15,413 nucleotides of DNA from Spirochaetia bacterium (GTDB lineage: Bacteria > Spirochaetota > Spirochaetia > CADAEX01), in NCBI GenBank assembly GCA_963662265.2, contig CAXXHA010000031.1:1-15413 (forward strand), read 5' to 3'. Both the position numbers and the translations under genes were made by a program. The first letter of the stretch is position 1. Every line of letters starts with the position of its first letter. Positions 3,942-15,413 of this stretch are shown here, in pieces. The notes beneath the pieces are model-generated. The model did no database searches. It worked only from the letters and a program-made list of their open reading frames with translations, and had not been told where the DNA came from.

Positions 3942-5006
3942 ATGGCAAGATTTATCCGAAACCAGAGTGACAGTAACGGGCTTCCCCCCGGTTCTTTCGT
4001 ATTCATAGGAAAACAGAAAGTTGATTTTTCAAGAATATCAATTATGGAGTATAACGAAGAAACTATTGCAGAAAATATTCTTGAAAGCCCGGATGATTTT
4101 GGAAAGAGTACTGATGATAAGTTTATCAGGTGGATAAATATTGACGGAATACATGACACAGATCTGATAAAGAAAGCCGGTAAAATATTCACCCTCCATC
4201 CCCTTCTGACAGAAGATATTCTGAACACCGGGCAGCGGCCTAAAATCGAGGAAGATGACAATGAGATTTTTGTTATTATAAAGATGCTTGATTTTGATGA
4301 AAAAAGAAAAATCGTCAGCACAGAACAGGTTGCAATGGTAGTTAAAAAGAACCTTGTTATAACTTTCCAGGAACAGCCGGGAGATGTTTTTGATCCAGTC
4401 AGGGACAGAATAAGAAAAAGCAGGGGAAGGATAAGATCTTCAGGATCTGATTATCTTGCCTATGCTCTTCTTGATACAATAGCAGACAATTATCTTCATA
4501 TAATCGAAATAATCGGCGACAGGATTGAGGAACTTGAAAATACAATTCTGGAAAACCCCTCACCTGCTATTCTGAGAAAAATAAATGTTTATAAAAAAGA
4601 GATTAATTTCATAAGCAAAACAGTCAGACCTGTCAAGGAAGCAGTGATAAGACTTCTTAAATTTGAGAACAGTATTATTTCAGACGAGATAGAAATCTTT
4701 TTCAAGGATCTGCAGGACCTTATTTTCAAGGCAGTTGACGGTATTGATGTATACAGGGAAATGCTTTCAGATTATTACAATCTGTATAATTCAATACTGA
4801 ACAACAGAAGCAATGATATTTTCAGATTTCTTACTATCTTTTCTACGATATTCATCCCGCTGACATTTATAGCAGGAATATACGGGACAAATTTCAAATA
4901 CCTTCCCGAACTCGACTACAGGTACAGCTACTATATATTTCTTGCAGGAATGGTGGGAATTGCATCTGTCATGATCTATATTTTCAGGAAAAAGAAGTGG
5001 TTCTGA
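3942..5006 (+). CDS. corA: CorA-family Mg2+/Co2+ transporter (GTN signature variant)
   Basis: 354 aa with RBS AAGGAG. Motifs GLPPGS, WINIDGIHD, LHPLLTEDILNTGQRPK and LTIFSTIFIPLTFIAGIYGTNF-LPEL, two C-terminal TM helices and a KKKWF end. Confidence 0.95.
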   Translation: MARFIRNQSDSNGLPPGSFVFIGKQKVDFSRISIMEYNEETIAENILESPDDFGKSTDDKFIRWINIDGIHDTDLIKKAGKIFTLHPLLTEDILNTGQRPKIEEDDNEIFVIIKMLDFDEKRKIVSTEQVAMVVKKNLVITFQEQPGDVFDPVRDRIRKSRGRIRSSGSDYLAYALLDTIADNYLHIIEIIGDRIEELENTILENPSPAILRKINVYKKEINFISKTVRPVKEAVIRLLKFENSIISDEIEIFFKDLQDLIFKAVDGIDVYREMLSDYYNLYNSILNNRSNDIFRFLTIFSTIFIPLTFIAGIYGTNFKYLPELDYRYSYYIFLAGMVGIASVMIYIFRKKKWF

Positions 5007-5018
5007 TTCTGTAATTGC

Positions 5019-5043
5019 GAAGCAGTACAACCAATATTGTTTC
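5019..5043 (+). terminator. Hairpin downstream of corA, possible terminator
   Basis: GAAGCAGTA-CAACCAA-TATTGTTTC forms 9 bp with two G.U pairs, 12 nt after the corA stop. There is no strong U-tract. Confidence 0.35.
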
Positions 5044-5155
5044 AAATGCTTAACAAAACTTATTCGGGATAAAACTTTATTTACTTTCGTTCATAGTTCC
5101 AAATCTCCTGAAATTTCATGTAGGCGGATTTTCATATTTTACAGTTTTATTAATA

Positions 5156-5644
5156 TCAATCTGAATAATAATGCAGAAGAATATCTTCAGTCTGATTCAG
5201 CCGTCTTGAAAGTTCACGTGCAATGTTGAGAATAAGCATGCAGTACAGCTCCTTATCAGTTTCATACAGCTTATAAAGCGTGTTGCTGGACAGCACTATC
5301 AGTTCAGTATCTTCCACAGCAATTGCAGTTGCAGTATGTGGTTCAATGCCGATCAACTCGTTATCGCCGAAGGAATGCCCTTTCTCAAATTCTATCAACT
5401 GATGGGGAGATTCCCTGTAATATTTAACAAGCCTGACTTTTCCGGATTTTATTATATAAAGACAGGAAGGGGATGTGCCTTCTTCAAAGATAATCTCATT
5501 TTTCTGAAAAGAAACCTTTTTAAGACTTTTAAACAATGTATAAAGCTGCTTATCATTAAGCCCGCCGAATATAGGGATTTGATTTATTATTGGAAGTATA
5601 TACTCAATATTTACAAGATTTTCATATGTTTTATTTTCACCCAT
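5156..5644 (-). CDS. Stand-alone cyclic-nucleotide-binding domain protein (no HTH)
   Basis: 162 aa. IPIFGGL...IIFEEG...LYIIKSGKV...FGDNELIGIEPHTATAIAVEDTELIVL plus a C-helix (NIARELSRRL) gives the cNMP fold. It is too short to carry a Crp DNA-binding domain. Confidence 0.85.
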   Translation of the reverse strand: MGENKTYENLVNIEYILPIINQIPIFGGLNDKQLYTLFKSLKKVSFQKNEIIFEEGTSPSCLYIIKSGKVRLVKYYRESPHQLIEFEKGHSFGDNELIGIEPHTATAIAVEDTELIVLSSNTLYKLYETDKELYCMLILNIARELSRRLNQTEDILLHYYSD

Positions 5645-5676
5645 AAATTAAATTATAACACTATATTTCTTTTTTA

Positions 5677-5716
5677 TAAAAAAAGAAGCTGCTCCATGTC
5701 AGGGAACAGCTTCTCT
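5677..5716 (-). terminator. Rho-independent terminator of the Hsp20 operon
   Basis: The minus strand reads AGAAGCTGTTCC-CTGACAT-GGAGCAGCTTCT followed by a T-run, about 15 nt after the stop at 5731. Confidence 0.8.
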
Positions 5717-5730
5717 TAAGTCATAAGCGT

Positions 5731-6111
5731 TTAAGATACGTTTATGCTTATTTGTCTTGTTTTCTGCTTTTCTTTTTTGGGCAGAAGGAGTTTCAGGGTT
5801 CCGTTTTTATAATCAGCATTAATTTCATCGCTGTTAACTGAATCGCCAAGATCAAATGATCTTTTGAAACCGGAATACATCATTTCGTCTCTCAAACAGG
5901 TGTAGTTTTCTCCGGCCCTTTTGGTACATTCAGCAGTGAGAGTTAAGATATCTTTTTCAACTTTCAGAGAAATATCATCTTTTTCAACACCAGGTATATC
6001 AAAATACATTACATATTCATTGTCATTTTCATATATATCGCAATCAGGTGTCTTGTAGATATTTCCTTTTGTTGATTCAACATTGTTTTTATCTTTTTTG
6101 ATAATTTCCAT
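5731..6111 (-). CDS. Hsp20/alpha-crystallin family small heat-shock protein (third gene)
   Basis: Motifs TPDCDIYE, DIPGVEKDDISL, GFKRSF and ADYKNGTLKLLLPK, with a C-terminal I-x-I (ISI). The start is moved to ATG 6111, which has an AAGGGGG RBS just after the upstream stop. Confidence 0.92.
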   Translation of the reverse strand: MEIIKKDKNNVESTKGNIYKTPDCDIYENDNEYVMYFDIPGVEKDDISLKVEKDILTLTAECTKRAGENYTCLRDEMMYSGFKRSFDLGDSVNSDEINADYKNGTLKLLLPKKEKQKTRQISINVS

Positions 6112-6121
6112 GATATCCCCC

Positions 6122-6526
6122 TTATTTAATCTCAATTTTTTTCGGTTTCATTTCAGCTGATTTCGGAAGCTTGATAATTAAAAGTCCATCTGAAGCTTCC
6201 GCCTTGATATTATCCATATCAATTTTATTGTTCAGCATGATATTTCTTTCAAATTCTCCGGAAAACCTTTCATCAAGATGCTTTTTAAGATCTTCAGCTG
6301 GTTCTTTTTTTCTTCTTCCCCTGATTGAGAGTGAATTATCTTTCAGAGTTATTTCAATATCATCTTTTTCAATTCCCGGAACTTTTGAAACAAGAATATA
6401 TTCCTCATTGTTTTCATAGGTATTGGTTTCAGGCCAGTTGGATTTTCCTGTAACACCGGCATTTCTGAAAACCCGGTTCATTTCCCTGTTAAGTTCAAAA
6501 AGATCATCAAAAATAGTTTTATACAT
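6122..6526 (-). CDS. Hsp20/alpha-crystallin family small heat-shock protein (second gene)
   Basis: Motifs WPETNTYE, VPGIEKDDIEITL, ERFSGEFER and DGLLIIKLPK, with C-terminal IEI. RBS GGGAGG. Confidence 0.95.
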   Translation of the reverse strand: MYKTIFDDLFELNREMNRVFRNAGVTGKSNWPETNTYENNEEYILVSKVPGIEKDDIEITLKDNSLSIRGRRKKEPAEDLKKHLDERFSGEFERNIMLNNKIDMDNIKAEASDGLLIIKLPKSAEMKPKKIEIK

Positions 6527-6544
6527 GGTAAAAGCCTCCCTGAA

Positions 6545-6970
6545 TTAATTAATTTTAATCTGTCGTGGTTTGAAATCATCCTGTTTCGGGATTTCAACTC
6601 TCAGAACACCGTCTTTAAGTTCTGCAGATATTTTATTGGAATCTGCACCTGTTACCTGGAAATTTCTGGAGAAACTACCTTCACTTCTTTCATACTTTGA
6701 CTTTTTCATAAACCCTTTCCTGTTTTCCCTTGTACGTGACCAGGATATCTTAAGAAGATCATTGTTTACTGTAATATCAATTTCATTCTTCCTGATTCCC
6801 GGAACTTCAAGCTCAATCCGGTACCTGTCATCCAGTTCCTCATAATCACATCTGCCGTTCATGATTTTTGTAAAATCATCAGGAAAACCCCTGAAAAGGT
6901 TTTTGTGATAATCAAATACTGAAGGAACATCACTCCAGAAGTCTTTAAATAATGCCAGTTCTTTACCCAT
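6545..6970 (-). CDS. Hsp20/alpha-crystallin family small heat-shock protein (first gene)
   Basis: Motifs LEVPGIRKNEIDI, ERSEGSFSRNF and AELKDGVLRVEIPK, with C-terminal IKI. RBS GGAGG. Confidence 0.95.
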   Translation of the reverse strand: MGKELALFKDFWSDVPSVFDYHKNLFRGFPDDFTKIMNGRCDYEELDDRYRIELEVPGIRKNEIDITVNNDLLKISWSRTRENRKGFMKKSKYERSEGSFSRNFQVTGADSNKISAELKDGVLRVEIPKQDDFKPRQIKIN

Positions 6971-7006
6971 AACGTGCCTCCGTTATTTAATCTTTACTAA
7001 TACAGT

Positions 7007-7022
7007 TGCAAAAACTGTGCCA
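7007..7022 (-). promoter_or_regulatory. Sigma54 (RpoN) -24/-12 promoter of the Hsp20 operon
   Basis: The minus strand reads TGGCAC-AGTTT-TTGCA, a perfect TGGCAC-N5-TTGCA consensus (GG-N10-GC), 36 nt upstream of ATG 6970. Confidence 0.85.
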
Positions 7023-7051
7023 AAATCATCTTCAAGCATTAAATGCTTATA

Positions 7052-7146
7052 ATACAAGGATTTATTTGTTTTCAAAATTATTATCAGAAACCAGGAATTG
7101 TATCATATTTACCCTAGCAAGAGAAAAAGTGTGTCAATAATATACA
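7052..7146. promoter_or_regulatory. Putative IHF-like site and tandem enhancer (bEBP UAS) sites for the sigma54 promoter
   Basis: ATACAA-GGAT-TTA (7052-7064) resembles WATCAA-N4-TTR with 2 mismatches. TGTATCA-TAT-TTACCCT (7099-7115) and TGTGTCA-ATA-ATATACA (7130-7146) are related imperfect dyads 31 bp apart. Confidence 0.4.
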
Positions 7147-7188
7147 TTTTCATTTTTTTATTATGGATTTTTTGTGTAAAAATGATTC

Positions 7189-7222
7189 AAAAAAAAAGCA
7201 GCAATTTTTAACATTGCTGCTT
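7189..7222 (-). terminator. Rho-independent terminator after the zinc-ribbon gene
   Basis: The minus strand reads AAGCAGCAAT-GTTAAAA-ATTGCTGCTT followed by a long T-run, about 10 nt after the stop at 7232. Confidence 0.85.
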
Positions 7223-7231
7223 CTGAAATTT

Positions 7232-7447
7232 TCATGCATAGTTGCTGTTCTGATTATTGCCCCAATACTTTCTGTATTTGTTTTTCATAAATGTATATAC
7301 AGCGTTATAGAGTTCGGTTTTTTCAGGCCCGGAAAACTGATAGCCGCATTTATGACATTTATGAACATTCATAAACTCGATTTCTGAAAAACCTGCTTTA
7401 AACGATTTTCTGCAGCTGGGACATTTGATATTAATATGATCCTTCAT
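7232..7447 (-). CDS. Small zinc-ribbon protein (CxxC-x18-CxxC, MJ0042-like)
   Basis: 71 aa: INIKCPSCRKSF...KCHKCGYQF. It has a GGGAG RBS upstream and its own terminator downstream. Confidence 0.7.
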   Translation of the reverse strand: MKDHINIKCPSCRKSFKAGFSEIEFMNVHKCHKCGYQFSGPEKTELYNAVYTFMKNKYRKYWGNNQNSNYA

Positions 7448-7616
7448 GCCAATATGATCTCCCGAGAAAATAGAATAAATTTTGTTTTAAGATAAATTAA
7501 TAAATTAAAAATAAATCGTAAATAATTTTTTATGATTTTTGATAAAAAACTCCAGTACTGTACAGGAACTTTATTACAATAACGCACAATTTCCGGATTT
7601 TATCTGCAGTTAAATG

Positions 7617-7657
7617 ATAACCGGTAATAAAGCTCACCCTGCCTTATCACCGGTTAT
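7617..7657 (-). terminator. Long hairpin after katG (probable terminator)
   Basis: The minus strand reads ATAACCGGTGATAAGGC-AGGGTGA-GCTTTATTACCGGTTAT (17 bp including G.U pairs), 15 nt after the katG stop. The U-tract is weak. Confidence 0.65.
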
Positions 7658-7672
7658 ATTTTTCAGTTAATT

Positions 7673-9886
<2,214 letters not shown>

Positions 9887-10157
9887 TTACCTTGATAGTT
9901 ATCTTGATGAGGATTTTCTGATGTCTTGAGGTTAAAAACTGCAGGCTGCTTTTACTTTTTCAAATCAATAATCCAGAAATTACCTGAAATTATTTTAATT
10001 GCGTTTTTACTTCCTCTATAATTAAAAAGTTTATAGGTTTGAAACCGGAAATCAAGAGTTAAAGCAGAAAATTATTGAACAATAACGTTTATTAAAAAAC
10101 CTGATTTTTATTAAATCCTGAAACACGGATTATCCATCAGATTCTGGCAAGGCAAAT

Positions 10158-10186
10158 TTGTTTAGGGAAACTGGTTGTACTATAAT
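10158..10186 (+). promoter_or_regulatory. Putative sigma70 promoter of the peroxiredoxin gene
   Basis: TTGTTT (10158-10163), a 17 nt spacer, then TATAAT (10181-10186), 39 nt upstream of ATG 10226. Confidence 0.5.
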
Positions 10187-10225
10187 TTTAGGTACTATAT
10201 TCAATTTAAAAAGGAGATCAATTAC

Positions 10226-10936
10226 ATGGAACACGAAGAAGTATCATTTGCCATGCCACGGATCGGCGACAAAGCACCAGTTTTCAAAGCAGTCACTACC
10301 CAGGGAGAGATAAATTTCCCTTCAGATTACAGCGGCAACTGGGTAATTCTATTCAGCCATCCCGCAGACTTCACACCAGTATGCACATCAGAATTTATTA
10401 CTTTCGCATCAATGGAACAGGATCTACTTAAAGCAAACTGCAAACTTGTAGGGCTTTCTGTAGATGGATTATACAGTCACATTGCCTGGCTCAGGACAAT
10501 CAAGGAAAAAATTGAATACAAGGGTAAAAAGAATGTAGAAGTCAATTTTCCACTGATTGAAGATATAACAATGGAAGTTGCTAAAAAATACGGAATGATT
10601 CAGCCGGGAGAAGACACCACAAAAGCTGTAAGAGCAGTTTTTTACATTGATCCGAAAGGGGTAATCAGAACAATTATCTATTATCCTCTCAGCCTGGGCC
10701 GTAATTTTGATGAAATATACAGGGTTCTGATTGCCCTGCAGACTTCTGATAATTTTGATGTAGCAACCCCTGCTGACTGGAGACCAGGCGATGATGTTAT
10801 AATTTCTCCTGCAGGATCTTGCGGTGTCGCTAAAAACAGGATGGATGGAAAAGAAGAAATGGAATGCCAGGACTGGTTTTTCTGTACCAGGAAGATTGAT
10901 AAAGACAAGATATTGAATAAAATCCTGAAAAAATAA
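10226..10936 (+). CDS. Peroxiredoxin, Prx6 (archaeal/bacterial TDXH-like) subfamily
   Basis: RBS AAGGAG, then ATG 10226 (236 aa). Active-site motif FSHPADFTPVCTSEF, plus GRNFDEI and ATPADW, and C-terminal CQDWFFC like the CxDWWFC of Aeropyrum-type Prx. Confidence 0.95.
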   Translation: MEHEEVSFAMPRIGDKAPVFKAVTTQGEINFPSDYSGNWVILFSHPADFTPVCTSEFITFASMEQDLLKANCKLVGLSVDGLYSHIAWLRTIKEKIEYKGKKNVEVNFPLIEDITMEVAKKYGMIQPGEDTTKAVRAVFYIDPKGVIRTIIYYPLSLGRNFDEIYRVLIALQTSDNFDVATPADWRPGDDVIISPAGSCGVAKNRMDGKEEMECQDWFFCTRKIDKDKILNKILKK

Positions 10937-11045: not shown

Positions 11046-11942
11046 TTATTTGATCCAGTCAGCAATAACTTCTTCGTTTTCTTTCAGCCATTCTCGTGCA
11101 GCATCTTCTTCACTTTTGTTGGATTCTCTTATTGCAACCATCAGAGATCCAACTTCGCTGTTGGTAAGAATCATATTTGAAAGAAACTGTGCAAGTTCAG
11201 GTTTATCTTCTTTGATATTTTTTCTTGCTGTAATATGGATATTTCCTTCGCCCCAGACTTTTTCACCATCCTGTTCAAGGAATTTAAGGTCAAAATAGCC
11301 GAACATTGAATGAGGTTTCCATGCTGTTACAACAATCCATTCCTCATTTTTATAAGCATCTTTAAGAGCTGCCATCATAGCTGGTCCAGAGGATGCAAGT
11401 AAGTTGTATCCTGCTTCGTTAAGCCCGTATTTATCAAACACTACATTTTCAGTAGTCTTCATGATTCCGGCACCTGCATCAATACCTGTAATTGTTAAAT
11501 CAAGTTTTTTTACAGCTTCATCTTTTTTAAGATCAGAAATTGTCTTAATACCAGCATCATACATATATGTCGGGATTGCAAGTCCGCTGAGAGTTCCTTC
11601 ATAAACATGACCTAGGTCAACAAGGTCTTCACCATATTTTTCTATATAATCCTTATGCAGAACAGGAAGCCATGTTTCCATAAATGCATCCTGATCTCCG
11701 CTTGCAACGCTTGCATATGCAGGCGCAACATCTGAAGCAGTGATTGTTACATCATAACCCATCTTATCTTCAAGAACTACTTTTGCGAGGTGTGTATATG
11801 CAACACCTTCTTCCCAGTTCGCATAAACCAGGTTAGCTGTTTTAGCAGGATCTTTGGATTCATTGCTTCCGCCGGCAAAAACCGCACTGCTTAAAACCAT
11901 CATAATTAAAAATGCTGTTACAATTTTCTTGTTAAAACTCAT
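11046..11942 (-). CDS. opuAC: Glycine betaine ABC transporter substrate-binding protein (OpuAC/ProX family)
   Basis: Signal peptide ending VFAGG. Trp-cage motifs YANWEEG, TWLPVLH and AWKPH, plus GIDAGAGIM, as in B. subtilis OpuAC. Confidence 0.92.
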   Translation of the reverse strand: MSFNKKIVTAFLIMMVLSSAVFAGGSNESKDPAKTANLVYANWEEGVAYTHLAKVVLEDKMGYDVTITASDVAPAYASVASGDQDAFMETWLPVLHKDYIEKYGEDLVDLGHVYEGTLSGLAIPTYMYDAGIKTISDLKKDEAVKKLDLTITGIDAGAGIMKTTENVVFDKYGLNEAGYNLLASSGPAMMAALKDAYKNEEWIVVTAWKPHSMFGYFDLKFLEQDGEKVWGEGNIHITARKNIKEDKPELAQFLSNMILTNSEVGSLMVAIRESNKSEEDAAREWLKENEEVIADWIK

Positions 11943-11971
11943 TATTTCTCCTTATATATTTTTATAAAAAA

Positions 11972-12820
11972 TTATTTTTTATTTTTTCCCGATATATCGC
12001 TCAACGCCTGGGTTACCCTGTCAAGAAAAATTGCAAGAATAACAATTGAAACACCGCCTTCAAATCCCATGTCAATTTTGAGCTGTGTTATTCCCTTTAA
12101 AACGACATTCCCGAGACCACCTGCACCGATCATTCCCGAAATAACAACCATTGAAAGGGCAAGCATTATTGTCTGGTTTACACCAGCCATAAGTGTGGGG
12201 AGCGCAACCGGAAGTTCAGCCTTTATAAGCATCTGCTTAGGTGTAGCGCCGAAAGCCCTGCATGCTTCCTTAATCTCAACAGGAACCTGCCTTATTCCCA
12301 GGTTTGTAAGTCTTACAACAGGGGGCAGTGAAAATATCAGGGTGGCGATTACACCGGGGACAGGCCCAAGCCTGAACAGGAGTACTGCCGGTATAAGATA
12401 TACAAACGCTGGCAGTGTCTGCATAAAGTCAAGTACAGGACGGAGGACTCTCCAGGCAGAATCAGATTTTGATGCCCAGATTCCAAGTGGTATTCCTGTA
12501 AGCAAACCGAAAATCACTGCTGAAAAAACAAGGGAAAGAGTATCCATTGTTTCATTCCAGTAACCCATGTAGGCAATCATGCTGAATCCGAGAACTGAAA
12601 AAACAGCTACTCCCCTGCCAGCTATTTTCCAGGCAATAAGTGTAAAAATCACAATCATGACTATTGCAGGTGGAAAATTAAACAGCCAGTTTATGCCATC
12701 GAGAAATCCCTCTACTATTAAAGCAATAAAATCAAACAGCCAGTCAGCGTTATCTGTCAGCCATTCAATTATTTTTTCAAAGCCTTTTCCTATATCTAAA
12801 ATATTACGAATTCCATCCAT
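11972..12820 (-). CDS. opuAB: Glycine betaine/proline ABC transporter permease (OpuAB/ProW)
   Basis: Motifs PVLDFMQTLPAFVYLIP, RLTNLGIRQV, the EAA loop (EACRAFGAT) and GVNQTIMLALSMVVI. Confidence 0.95.
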   Translation of the reverse strand: MDGIRNILDIGKGFEKIIEWLTDNADWLFDFIALIVEGFLDGINWLFNFPPAIVMIVIFTLIAWKIAGRGVAVFSVLGFSMIAYMGYWNETMDTLSLVFSAVIFGLLTGIPLGIWASKSDSAWRVLRPVLDFMQTLPAFVYLIPAVLLFRLGPVPGVIATLIFSLPPVVRLTNLGIRQVPVEIKEACRAFGATPKQMLIKAELPVALPTLMAGVNQTIMLALSMVVISGMIGAGGLGNVVLKGITQLKIDMGFEGGVSIVILAIFLDRVTQALSDISGKNKK

Positions 12821-12834
12821 ATTTGTATTTATCC

Positions 12835-14081
12835 TTATTTATTCTCAATTGTCTGTTCATCAATTATTTCACTGAATACAGTTGGAGCTTCTGATTCATC
12901 AGCTCCTTCATTCATTTCTGAAATAATTACTTCTCTATCGATGATGCCCAGGAATTTATTATTCTCATTTATAACAACAAGAGGGGTTTTAGACTCAAAA
13001 GCTGTTCCAAGTAAATCTGCAATTGAAGTCTCTTTGTAAGTAGTATAAAAATCATGCCTTACAATAGAGGAGAGGTCTTTTTCTTTTTTCTTCTTAAGTT
13101 CTATTACATCTTCGATATAGATAATACCAAGCAGAATTCTTTCTGAATCAACAAGATATGCGTATGATTCACCTGTCTTCTCCATTAAATGAAGAGCTGT
13201 CTTTGGACCGTCTTTTGTTACATTTAAAAGCGGTGTTTTGTGCATTATTGTACCTGCTGTTATAACTTTTGTTCTGTCAACATTCTGGACAAATTCCTTA
13301 ACATAGCTGTCAGCAGGAGATGAGAGAATCTCTTCAGGTGTGCCTATCTGCCGGACTTTACCGTCAGGACCCAGAATAGCAATTCTGTCGCCAATCTTTA
13401 AAGCTTCATCAAGATCATGTGTAATAAAAATAATTGTCTTGTGCATGCTGGACTGAAGCTCAACAAGCTCATCCTGCATCTGGGTTCTTATAAGTGGATC
13501 AAGAGCGCTGAACGCTTCATCCATCAGGAGTATTTCAGGATCATTTGCCAGGGCTCTGGCAAGACCGACGCGCTGCTGCATACCGCCCGACAGTTCACTT
13601 GGCAGGCTGAACTCAAACCCTTCAAGCCCTACAAGCTTAAGTGCCTGAAGCGCTTTTTCTCTCCTTGATTCCTTTCCTTCACCACCCAGTTCAAGGCCGA
13701 ATTCCACGTTGCTTACAACATCCCTGTGGGGAAGAAGGCCGAAATTCTGGAAAACCATTGACATCTTATAACGCCTGAGTTCTCGAAGCTTTTCAGAACT
13801 CATTTTTACAACATCCTCGCCATCAACAATAAGTTTTCCGAATGTCGGTTTTATGAGACGGTTCAGGCATCTTATAAATGTTGATTTCCCGCTGCCTGAC
13901 AAACCCATGACAACAAAAGTTTCTTTTCTTTCAATATCAAAAGTTGCACCATTAATCGCAACTGTACATCCGGTCTTCTTTTTTACTTCCTGTTTGGACA
14001 GCCCCTTATCTGTGAGCTGTTTTGCTTTTTTGGATTAGGTCCGAATATTTTATACAAATCCCGTACTTCAATTAATGCCAT
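12835..14081 (-). CDS. opuAA: Glycine betaine ABC transporter ATP-binding subunit with C-terminal CBS domains (OpuAA/ProV); one apparent -1 indel at 14026-14031
   Basis: ATG 14081 after GAGG reads MALIEVRDLYKIFGPNPK. After a 6-A run the frame shifts to KAKQLTDKG...GCTVAINGATFDI...VVMGLSGSGKST (Walker A), then LSGGMQQRVGLARAL and LLMDEAFSALDPLIR. Adding one A gives a 415-aa ORF. Confidence 0.95.
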
Positions 14082-14166
14082 TATTATCCTCTTCCGGTAT
14101 CAACCGTTTATTTTCTGTCGTTTTTTTTATTTTTTTTCAACTCAACAAAGACCCTGTTTTTACATC

Positions 14167-14257
14167 CCGGACATCTGATATAGCCCGTTTTCCAGTCAAC
14201 ACTGTTATTGAAAATTATTTTTGCCCTGCATTCCGGACATATTGCTGTTATTGAAAA
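14167..14257. promoter_or_regulatory. Direct-repeat operator-like sites in the opuA upstream region
   Basis: CTGTTATTGAAAA occurs at 14202-14214 and 14245-14257. CCGGACAT occurs at 14167-14174 and 14233-14240. Confidence 0.4.
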
Positions 14258-14335
14258 CATATATAAACCCCCAGAAATATATTAAATATTATTTCTTGTT
14301 ACAAATTAGTTTTTATAACTGAATCAGGTTACAGC

Positions 14336-14382
14336 AAAAAAAGCACTCTAACCCTATAAGTTATTATAGAGTTAGAGTGCTT
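14336..14382 (-). terminator. Strong intrinsic terminator upstream of, and co-oriented with, the opuA operon
   Basis: The minus strand reads GCACTCTAACTCTATAA-TAAC-TTATAGGGTTAGAGTGC-TTTTTTT. This is a 17-bp stem with one U.G pair that forms only on the minus strand. Confidence 0.9.
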
Positions 14383-14465
14383 AAGTTTCGCCTTTCGACT
14401 CACTTTATACCACTTATTGTAGTATAATTCATTGCCTTGTTCAGACCCTGAATAAACCCCAGTTC
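14383..14465 (-). ncRNA. Candidate structured cis-regulatory RNA (orphan riboswitch/attenuator-like) directly 5' of the terminator
   Basis: Hand-folded stems: GGGUUU/AAACUU, UUCAG/CUGAA, UUAUACUAC/GUGGUAUAA and GUC-GAAA-GGC. The G.U pairs consistently favour the minus strand. Confidence 0.4.
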
Positions 14466-14579
14466 CAAAAAAATATTTTTCAACTCAATTTTCTTCATAA
14501 AATTTCAGCTTGTAATATTACTACAAATGCATTAACACACTCACAAAAAAAATACTAATCAAGTTTACTTCACACATGC

Positions 14580-14608
14580 ATATTATTATAATACAACAAC
14601 TTAGTCAA
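14580..14608 (-). promoter_or_regulatory. Putative sigma70 promoter driving the long opuA leader
   Basis: The minus strand reads TTGACT (14608-14603), a 17 nt spacer, then TAATAT (14585-14580). Confidence 0.5.
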
Positions 14609-14861
14609 CAGCCGACCGCTACTCCGTTATTTTCAGGACTTTACAGACAATCATAAAATAAAAAAACAACAGCTTATTATCATATAAAAAGGCTTATTGG
14701 AAATACAAACAGCCTGTTAAAAAAAAGCAGTTAACGCTTTCGCCAGACGGGCTGCATTATGTTTTTTCCTGTCTACATACAGGAAAGAAAGCTTCTCTCG
14801 TGTTCGAAAACAGAACTGCAGCTGGAATATTCTGTTATGCCATATCGCTTAAACCTGTAAC

Positions 14862-15413
14862 TTATTCCATATAAAGATAACTGTACTTCTCAGAAACTGT
14901 CTTTATCAGTGCATTCATTTCAGAAGATATCCTGCTGCTTCCAGGTTCGACATCAAACACTTCCCCGCTGCTGCTGCGAATCCTGAAAAGTCTTTCATTC
15001 AGCTTGAGAAAACCTGTATTGTCGCTGTCCTGAAAATCCTCTTCCGACCAGAAAAGTGTTACTTTATCAAGATAGGGACTCCCGTCATGGGGACAGAAAA
15101 CTGTACAGTTTCCGCATTCATTACACATACCGTCAATGTGAATTATCTGATGCCTGTCTCTGAATATTCCCAACTCATCAGAAAGGGAAACTGCAATATT
15201 CGCCCTGTTCGGGCATACTTCGGTACATACTTCACAGATTGTCCCGCAGCTGAGGCATCTCCTGTCCTCATCAGGATCGAGTTTATCGTCAGAAAGTATT
15301 CCTCTTCTTTTGGTAGATATCGCTGTCAGGAGTCTCAATACTATATCTTGTAAAATCATTATCAAGAGACAGCTTATCTAGAATATCCATCGCAATAATT
15401 CTGCTTGATCCCA
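14862..15413 (-). CDS. ygfK: C-terminal part of a YgfK-like Fe-S flavo-oxidoreductase (putative selenate reductase subunit); partial, one frameshift near 15308
   Basis: RCLSCGTICEVCTEVCPNRANIAV and QIIHIDGMCNECGNCTVFCPHDGSPYLDKVTLF match the YgfK C-terminal 4Fe-4S dicluster region. An upstream frame (RIIAMDILDKLSLDNDF...) is open to the window edge. Confidence 0.85.

Follow-up and report, generated by a model that had tools for sequence, protein, structure and literature searches.

In the yybP-ykoY (Mn2+) and czcD (NiCo) riboswitches, a four-way junction carries conserved internal loops on its arms, and the metal stabilises a P1 helix that holds the 5′ strand of the terminator and so turns expression on. 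To our knowledge, beyond the model Firmicutes and Proteobacteria little is known of how bacteria activate their compatible-solute genes under salt stress. The ydaO and Na+-I riboswitches are both reported ahead of ablA/kamA and eam genes in sections of PMC5737381 and PMC9337991; for two orphan motifs, parts of PMC8632094 and PMC11109978 have the authors considering osmoprotectants or c-di-AMP (cyclic diadenosine monophosphate) as ligands of the proX motif, and a ligand related to shikimate and aromatic amino acids for the opuB motif. Here we describe a 238-nucleotide (nt) leader at positions 14573-14336, minus strand, of a 15,413-nt stretch of Spirochaetia bacterium DNA (assembly GCA_963662265.2, contig CAXXHA010000031.1; the whole stretch is called the window below). 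The leader precedes the glycine-betaine ABC operon opuAA-opuAB-opuAC and apparently represents an undescribed class of cis-regulatory RNA for osmoprotectant genes.

Our analysis suggests that this leader is a new riboswitch class: a cis-acting RNA of about 240 nt that would sense its signal directly, switch between terminator and antiterminator, and turn on compatible-solute genes. With direct sensing and ON polarity included, we give this reading a probability of roughly 0.6; that the RNA truly acts in cis on osmolyte genes as a terminator/antiterminator leader is very probable. An initial annotation of the locus had proposed an undescribed riboswitch-like attenuator ahead of the operon, a proposal that is strengthened by the absence of any Rfam 15 match, by covarying homologous leaders and by a conserved antiterminator opposed to the terminator. 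Its view of the extent of the element stands only in part: the structured block that it noted is real and makes up only the 3′ third of the leader, while the 5′ domain (14573-14482), a 50-codon open reading frame (ORF) and two further copies in the same genome are additions of the present work. Conservation spans from RUGAAGUA, directly past the promoter, to the terminator, and at about 230-280 nt across the family the element has roughly three times the length of that block.

Covariation supports both the 3′ domain (14469-14366), which forms a four-way junction of helices P1-P4, and the 5′ domain. In alignment A3, which holds 51 distinct full-length leaders, 92.1% of cells were paired under the combined model of 61 pairs, compared with 34-45% in a slid control whose partners were displaced by 1-3 columns; 47 of the 61 pairs had changed on both sides, and none of 500 shuffles reached the observed values. 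RNAalifold predicted 56 pairs from 30 leaders, 37 of them with compensatory change. When 70 sequences were fitted to R1, a covariance model of the 3′ domain (alignment A5), 97.3% of cells were paired against 28-48% in the slid control, and 22 of 34 pairs had changed on both sides. The initial annotation had suggested a search of Rfam and a covariation analysis of homologous leaders; both were run, the first returning no family and the second the changes just described. It had also seen a compact structured block here, in agreement with the folding energy of region 14325-14475 (-52.2 kcal/mol, z = -7.75), which none of 200 shuffles equalled.

Within the 3′ domain, P1 joins 14454-14467 to 14382-14367 through 11 pairs that are 99-100% paired in the 51 leaders; its consensus is UAGAACUGGGGUUU with AAR-C-A-CUC-UAAC-UCUA, and the supported register pairs UAGA..GGGGUUU with AAR-C-(A)-CUC..UCUA. 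P2, with the consensus AUYCA..GUC / GGC..UGRAU, corresponds to helix 6, which is 94% paired and has 6 of its 10 pairs changed on both sides; P3 corresponds to helix 7, which is 98% paired and shows such change in 7 of 8 pairs, and P4 to helices 8 and 9, all 5 pairs of which have changed on both sides at 94-96% pairing. P3 had been drawn by hand in the initial annotation and needs no revision. For P4, the proposed GUC/GGC stem holds, with all 3 of its pairs changed on both sides, whereas the proposed GNRA loop does not, since the loops vary. Two other proposals fail: the hairpin UUCAG-GGU-CUGAA, drawn as P2, is paired in 44.6% of cells across the 51 leaders and is peculiar to the window copy; and the kink-turn GGC/GUC, in which no pair has changed on both sides, is incompatible with the covarying P2 and at one pair is broken in up to 10 of the 51 leaders. 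Every hairpin loop differs among copies in length and sequence, and invariant bases are confined to P1, the internal loops and the surroundings of the junction. Across two phyla, P1 is nearly invariant in both of its strands and in its AC / UAAC internal loop, and so are P2 in its GG/AA loop and P4 in its GA/GAA loop.

A few copies depart from this pattern. The mid-P1 G-U pair (A3 columns 160/273) becomes U with C and C with C in the divergent copies L077:1501-1608 and L099:1501-1602, neither being a standard pair; this position could have a non-Watson-Crick or tertiary role. In copy L108:1501-1608, which may be decaying, the invariant CAGGGUC is replaced by UAAUGUC. Copy L034:2496-2585 lacks P3, and copy L103:1501-1585 lacks the P3- and P4-like parts and retains P1, P2 and the terminator.

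The 5′ domain is a long irregular hairpin whose basal 8-bp stem, Pa, has a conserved purine-rich loop on either side, AAGUA / GAAAAA and UAGUA / GAAGAAA; these AGUA-type and GAA(A)-type loops would fit a loop-E or bulged-G consensus. Of the 27 pairs in helices 1-3 of this domain, 26 have changed on both sides, and in the 51 leaders 83-87% of the cells of these helices are paired. Among the 70 leaders with full flanks, the 5′ RARGUA motif and the A-rich linker between the domains occur in every one, and a run of at least five T follows the hairpin in 67, the other three having interrupted T runs. The distal half of the domain is variable, and one subgroup (L002, L009/L020, L023, L078) has a shorter version of it. 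In most leaders the conserved 5′ end, RUG-AAG-UAR (14565-14573, minus strand, in the window), can also be read as a mini-frame of start codon, Lys and stop, placed where the transcript is predicted to begin. We set aside its reading as a leaderless mini-ORF, as 5 of the 51 leaders have no start codon there; the mini-frame may follow from conservation of the AAGUA loop.

The mechanism can be read from an overlap between P1 and the terminator: the terminator's 5′ arm begins with 16 nt (14382-14367) that also make up the 3′ strand of P1, so that P1 and the terminator are mutually exclusive and P1 is the predicted antiterminator. The terminator stem itself is 92.9% paired over 18 pairs in the 51 leaders. 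Columns 268 and 269 of A3 covary both with the 5′ strand of P1 (pair 163/269: UA 24, UG 19, CG 8; pair 164/268: UA 36, CG 9, UG 6) and with the 3′ arm of the terminator (column 268: AU 36, GU 8, GC 7; column 269: AU 23, GC 20, GU 7). One strand with two evolutionarily kept partners is the signature of a functional alternative pairing. Because the 5′ arm of the terminator carries ACUCUA-ACUCUA, two registers for the GGGG run look possible; this repeat (14367-14378, minus strand) is invariant across the family, and covariation supports one register only. The antiterminator proposed in the initial annotation, UGGGGUU/AACUCUA, used a register that is broken in 8 and 9 of the 51 leaders wherever columns 163 and 164 vary, and it has to be given up. 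The short P1 that it had proposed, GGGUUU/AAACUU, is compatible with the terminator and has weak support: it is 91.8% paired, shows 4 CG compensations and can form in most members, whereas it is broken in 10 of 51 leaders at one pair, by C-A mismatches, and in 4 of 51 at another.

Folding energies suggest how the competition would be decided. For window RNA ending at 14366, the minimum free energy fold is the P1-closed junction (3′ domain, -28.0 kcal/mol; -23.6 kcal/mol in the consensus structure), and for the full-length RNA it is the terminator fold. Because P1 adds far less stability than the terminator hairpin, which alone reaches -26.7 kcal/mol, the default outcome would be termination, with the terminator outcompeting P1, and read-through would need P1 to be held. 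Because the P1 strands and the P1 internal loop are almost invariant in two phyla, we infer that the P1-closed form is the state that is recognised and stabilised, which would make the element an ON switch.

The genes that follow the leader share a theme. The first gene past the terminator was typed by Pfam over 71 distinct cores, five of them through a duplicate locus, with ORF scans covering the strand of the leader. It encodes a BCCT transporter at 25 cores, an OpuA-type ABC ATPase with CBS domains at 20, an APC-type amino-acid permease at eight, a lysine-2,3-aminomutase at three, another radical-SAM aminomutase-like protein at three, an SBP_bac_3 binding protein at three, OpuAC at two, an ABC permease at two, and a PALP-GNAT fusion, a D-Ala-D-Ala-ligase-like protein and an ORF without a Pfam match at one each; at the remaining two cores the contig ends. 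Osmolyte-synthesis genes of the aminomutase type are thus first in 6 of the 69 cores with readable downstream DNA. The next gene was scanned at two of the three other radical-SAM loci (L019 and L036) and at both encodes a type III glutamine synthetase, a combination by which beta-glutamate or beta-glutamine could plausibly be made. As first downstream genes, those for K+ transporters, Na+ pumps or the cell wall were found at none of the 69 readable cores. Given this tally, without K+/Na+ transport or cell-wall genes, the regulon is one of organic-osmolyte accumulation: the leader nearly always precedes genes of compatible-solute uptake or synthesis. Two associations are odd, namely a D-Ala-D-Ala-ligase-like ATP-grasp gene (L092:1757-2623, plus strand) and the PALP-GNAT fusion (L054:110-1450, minus strand); their products may be unrecognised osmolyte-synthesis enzymes.

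The same tally bears on whether the terminated transcript of about 240 nt could instead be a trans-acting small RNA, its osmoprotectant neighbours being incidental or secondary. The promoter-like site and strong terminator of its own, together with the at least 77 nt that separate it from the next start codon in the window, would suit such an RNA. A same-strand ORF nevertheless lies past the terminator at 69 of 69 readable cores, with a Pfam match at 68; several genomes carry multiple copies, each ahead of a different osmolyte gene; and the 5′ arm of the terminator is tied to a covarying alternative helix for which a plain small-RNA terminator has no need. We regard this explanation as very improbable.

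The element is found repeatedly within genomes and in two phyla. BLAST of the window's own assembly (41 contigs, 90.6% complete) revealed three copies: besides that of the window, one with 73% identity precedes an orphan gene for an OpuAC-type betaine-binding protein, and one with 69% identity precedes a lysine-2,3-aminomutase gene followed by a GNAT gene, which by their families and by parts of PMC9337991 form an ablAB-like pair, presumably for N-epsilon-acetyl-beta-lysine. BLAST also found the element in relatives; matches in genomes G005 and G035 covered the A/T-rich linker only, without the motif, and were dropped. A search pattern built from three invariant blocks gave 27 matches in a collection with one genome per species, 26 of them with the entire element, and all 26 are records of Spirochaetia/Spirochaetaceae/Treponema or Fusobacteriaceae, the latter including Propionigenium maris DSM 9537 (three copies), Psychrilyobacter and metagenome-assembled genomes of Fusobacterium sp. 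With a looser pattern, metagenome contigs gave 26 matches, of which 25 were real and 21 distinct. Two pattern matches that have neither the remaining parts of the element nor an R1 match, L038 (a Micrarchaeota record) and L049, were set aside as chance; R1 recovers 70 of 72 loci, and the two that it misses are exactly these. R1 finds the element in 9 of 151 sampled genomes of Spirochaetia, the window's own included. In Fusobacteriota, 16 of the 151 genomes sampled have it, and a single genome can carry as many as 4 copies. In total, 71 distinct 3′-domain sequences were collected from Spirochaetia, Fusobacteriaceae and metagenomes.

Under the proposed riboswitch mechanism, a ligand or ion at the conserved junction and internal loops would lock P1 during RNA synthesis and permit read-through, with docking of the 5′ domain as a possible aid. 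Because every regulated gene serves organic-osmolyte accumulation, the expected signal is one of hyperosmotic stress. As trigger, a monovalent cation (K+ or Na+) or ionic strength is our first, tentative choice; a protein or some other effector comes next and is somewhat unlikely, c-di-AMP is unlikely, and an osmolyte or amino acid decidedly so. The more specific proposal that the leader directly senses monovalent cations inside the cell (K+, or K+/Na+ ionic strength) and turns on a regulon of BCCT, OpuA, ablAB and eam-glutamine synthetase genes is doubtful; no description of a K+-responsive riboswitch was found in the literature searched. If true, such a K+ sensor would be the missing link between the K+ influx phase and the organic-osmolyte phase of osmoadaptation in marine Spirochaetia and Fusobacteriaceae.

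The terminator/antiterminator logic would equally fit a protein effector, and antitermination could depend on a trans-acting factor, for example a conserved RNA-binding regulator that attaches to the conserved loops and holds P1 together under osmotic stress. The size of the leader and its two domains would suit this view, and purine-rich internal loops of its AGUA...GAA type are often bound by proteins. We noticed no adjacent regulator gene, and flanking genes differ between loci (upstream neighbours were viewed at two loci of the window's genome); ANTAR-type and RAT-type Rfam models gave no match; and conservation that is close to base for base in two phyla, along with a covarying junction, is typical of metabolite or ion aptamers and not of the short hairpins to which known antiterminator proteins bind. 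On balance, dependence on a protein appears distinctly improbable.

Several observations weigh against the riboswitch reading that we prefer. The sequences of A5 were fitted to the model, so that its own structure is favoured there; and the element comes from only two phyla plus unassigned metagenome contigs, with many close relatives, so that sequence counts overstate the number of independent events. Near-invariance limits covariation in P1, where 5 of 11 pairs never vary. At its score of 9/12, the promoter-like match is no more than chance expectation. The proposed ON polarity derives from conservation logic and folding energies, and the short P1, being compatible with the terminator, may keep an OFF-type design alive.

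Such an OFF design is the core of the strongest competing explanation, according to which the leader is a second structural class of c-di-AMP riboswitch: c-di-AMP, as a signal of no osmotic distress, would bind the junction closed by the short P1 and leave the terminator free, whereas in its absence the long P1 would form and transcription would read through. Both the formation of the short P1 in most members and an overlap with the ydaO regulon (osmolyte transporters and kamA/ablA, as given in parts of PMC5737381 and PMC9337991) fit this idea. The ydaO riboswitch model (RF00379, cut-off 38 bits) matched nothing in the window, its own genome, five other carrier genomes or 10 representatives, as the initial annotation had anticipated in setting the element apart from ydaO; nor did it match in any of 151 sampled Spirochaetia genomes, an absence that counts in favour of this idea. 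In Fusobacteriota, 20 of 151 sampled genomes have ydaO above the cut-off, one of which (G177) also has the new motif, so that ydaO occurs in 1 of 16 motif-bearing and 19 of 135 other genomes, a co-distribution that does not discriminate between ligand hypotheses. Among seven ydaO cases there (L112-L118), five precede fused permease-OpuAC betaine-type ABC genes and two precede histidine kinases; both RNAs therefore serve the same gene category. In G177 (L118, G177:C7:3800-6700), the new motif accompanies the classical c-di-AMP riboswitch and lies ahead of a BCCT gene.

The coexistence of a bona fide ydaO and the new motif in G177 also counts against a c-di-AMP ligand. A diadenylate cyclase domain is present in 28 of 29 motif-bearing genomes, so that the organisms can make c-di-AMP; such genes are nearly universal, and their presence says little about the ligand. 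K+ transporter and cell-wall genes, which are typical ydaO targets, follow 0 of 69 readable cores. Mismatches disrupt the short P1 in 10 of 51 leaders, the long P1 never at those columns, and the invariant strands and internal loop of the long P1 are hard to explain if it is a mere unliganded competitor. We consider a c-di-AMP OFF switch improbable and retain the ON switch as the better account.

Along the minus strand of the window follow the promoter-like site, the conserved leader, a perfect 19-bp hairpin with U7, a 77-nt spacer, a zinc-ribbon ORF, and opuAA, opuAB and opuAC (Table 1). The sigma-70-like promoter described in the initial annotation is present, though not above shuffle frequency: the window holds 6 promoter-like sites compared with 4.2+/-1.6 in shuffles, that is, no enrichment. 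Both hexamers are preserved in the closest relative (alignment A2), and transcription is predicted to start at about 14573, where conservation begins. The U-tailed terminator that had been reported is likewise there and, at 19 pairs, slightly longer than the 17 bp first given; with 2 terminator-like sites in the window compared with 0.4+/-0.5 in shuffles, it is a clear outlier. Its distance of 255 nt from the opuAA start codon also agrees with the first estimate.

Table 1. Features of the leader and its operon in the window
Feature	Position	Strand	Details
Sigma-70-like promoter	14580..14608	-	-35 TTGACT (14608-14603), 17-nt spacer, -10 TAATAT (14585-14580); match 9/12
5′ domain, long irregular hairpin	14482..14573	-	basal stem Pa (14566-14558 with 14489-14482), then GUGAG...ACAAGC, apical AAUGC...GUAGU
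A/U-rich linker between domains	14468..14481	-	GAAAAAU...; GAAAA invariant in A3
P1 5′ strand	14454..14467	-	UGGAACUGGGGUUU; consensus UAGAACUGGGGUUU; GAACUGGGG invariant in 51 aligned leaders
P2	14427..14453	-	AUUCA/UGAAU and GUCU/AGGC, conserved GG/AA internal loop between them, variable hairpin loop
P3	14406..14426	-	UAUACUAC / GUGGUAUA, variable loop
P4	14385..14403	-	GU..GUC / GGC..AC, conserved GA/GAA internal loop, variable hairpin loop; followed by conserved GAAACUU
P1 3′ strand = terminator 5′ arm (predicted switching sequence)	14367..14382	-	AAGCACUCUAACUCUA; direct repeat ACUCUA-ACUCUA
Intrinsic terminator	14336..14382	-	19-bp stem (14382-14364 with 14359-14341), 4-nt loop UAAC, U7 tract to 14336
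Zinc-ribbon ORF, first gene past leader	14108..14260	-	50 codons (14260-14111), CPEC...CPGC (two CxxC pairs), GGGGG ribosome-binding site
opuAA-opuAB-opuAC (regulated operon)	11046..14081	-	opuAA (ATG 14081; ABC_tran and CBS), opuAB (12820-11972), opuAC (11942-11046)

The zinc-ribbon ORF has no Pfam match and shares 60% identity over 50 aa with an equivalently placed ORF in a related genome (L021:2156-2320); it was not seen ahead of opuAA in the other opuA-type loci looked at. The opuAA frame that begins at its ATG is broken near 14031 in the window, and a long ORF restarts at 13908. In contigs of three public runs an additional base follows 14031 and the frame is restored, so that the break is better taken for an error in homopolymer length, or for a strain variant, in this assembly than for a dead gene; the contigs of the same runs have one extra base after 14335, in the U tract of the terminator, making it U8. 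Stress genes lie nearby in the window (3942-10933): those for a CorA-type Mg2+ transporter (3942-5003, plus strand), Hsp20 (6548-6970, minus strand), a catalase-peroxidase-like peroxidase (7676-9862, minus strand) and a peroxiredoxin (10175-10933, plus strand).

These results provide one well-defined RNA element ahead of osmoprotectant genes in two phyla, with a readable terminator/antiterminator mechanism and few candidate ligands. If the ligand is a cation, the element would be a new ion riboswitch; if it is c-di-AMP, a second class for that messenger; if it is an osmolyte, a new feedback sensor; and if the effector is a protein, a new antiterminator system. The element could also aid the annotation of osmolyte genes, such as amino-acid permeases and pairs of aminomutase and type III glutamine synthetase, in uncultured marine anaerobes.

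Comparison with described RNA families returned no counterpart. Rfam 15 found no family at gathering score in the window, and no meaningful match over 14050-14900 at E<=10 or in 10 representatives at permissive E-values; sub-threshold hairpin matches to the terminator stem (Ref64 small RNA and microRNA precursors) were taken as chance. The Na+-I model (RF03071, cut-off 40.5 bits) had no match in the window, the 10 representatives or five carrier genomes. Among riboswitch papers on BCCT, opuA, ablA, compatible solutes, Fusobacteria and the carrier genera, we found no description of the element, supplementary motif alignments lying outside this comparison, and no description of a K+, osmolarity, betaine or second-class c-di-AMP riboswitch that matches it. 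The FuFi-1 motif, which occurs in Fusobacteria and Firmicutes and is followed by a terminator, was rejected as a counterpart: it is only rarely in 5′ untranslated regions, according to a section of PMC5737381, and has no Rfam match.

T-box leaders share with the element a similar length and the order of long 5′ hairpin, linker and antiterminator competing with a terminator. The 5′ hairpin of about 100 nt with S-turn-like AGUA loops could correspond to Stem I, and the antiterminator, which overlaps the terminator in a leader of about 240 nt, could capture uncharged tRNA or another RNA. The T-box model (RF00230) gave no match in the window or the 10 representatives, however, and neither did other Rfam models; no T-box sequence and no variable specifier-like triplet were seen; the antiterminator encloses the three hairpins P2-P4 and not a 7-nt bulge; and the downstream genes are those of osmolyte transport, unrelated to tRNA charging or aminoacyl-tRNA. 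A T-box-like leader is exceedingly improbable.

In its architecture the element would resemble the yybP-ykoY and czcD riboswitches, from which it differs in having no Rfam match, different conserved sequences and an extra 5′ domain. The proX motif of Spiribacter (PMC8632094) and the opuB motif of Enterobacteriaceae (PMC11109978) are, like the element, orphan candidates ahead of betaine/proline-type ABC genes; going by the taxa, sizes and mechanisms in the published descriptions, they would be set apart by their occurrence in Proteobacteria and by occlusion of the ribosome-binding site. The ydaO-yuaA riboswitch (RF00379) is also a 5′ leader; it has an intrinsic terminator and, according to PMC5737381 and PMC9337991, governs genes for osmolyte transporters as well as kamA/ablA. 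It is an OFF switch with its aptamer apart from the terminator, as sections of PMC9337991 describe it, whereas the junction-closing helix of the element uses the 5′ arm of the terminator; moreover, the element has no sequence or structure match to ydaO and no K+ transporter or cell-wall genes in its regulon. Na+-I (DUF1646 motif), to judge from parts of PMC9337991, is an ON switch whose aptamer overlaps the terminator, as we propose for the element, and occasionally precedes ablA, eam and dapB; it would be the nearest functional analogue if the ligand is a cation, although it is a 55-position Rfam model as compared with a two-domain RNA of about 240 nt, and its regulon is dominated by Na+ transporters, which were not seen here. 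The element thus occupies a regulatory niche that is held elsewhere by ydaO and Na+-I.

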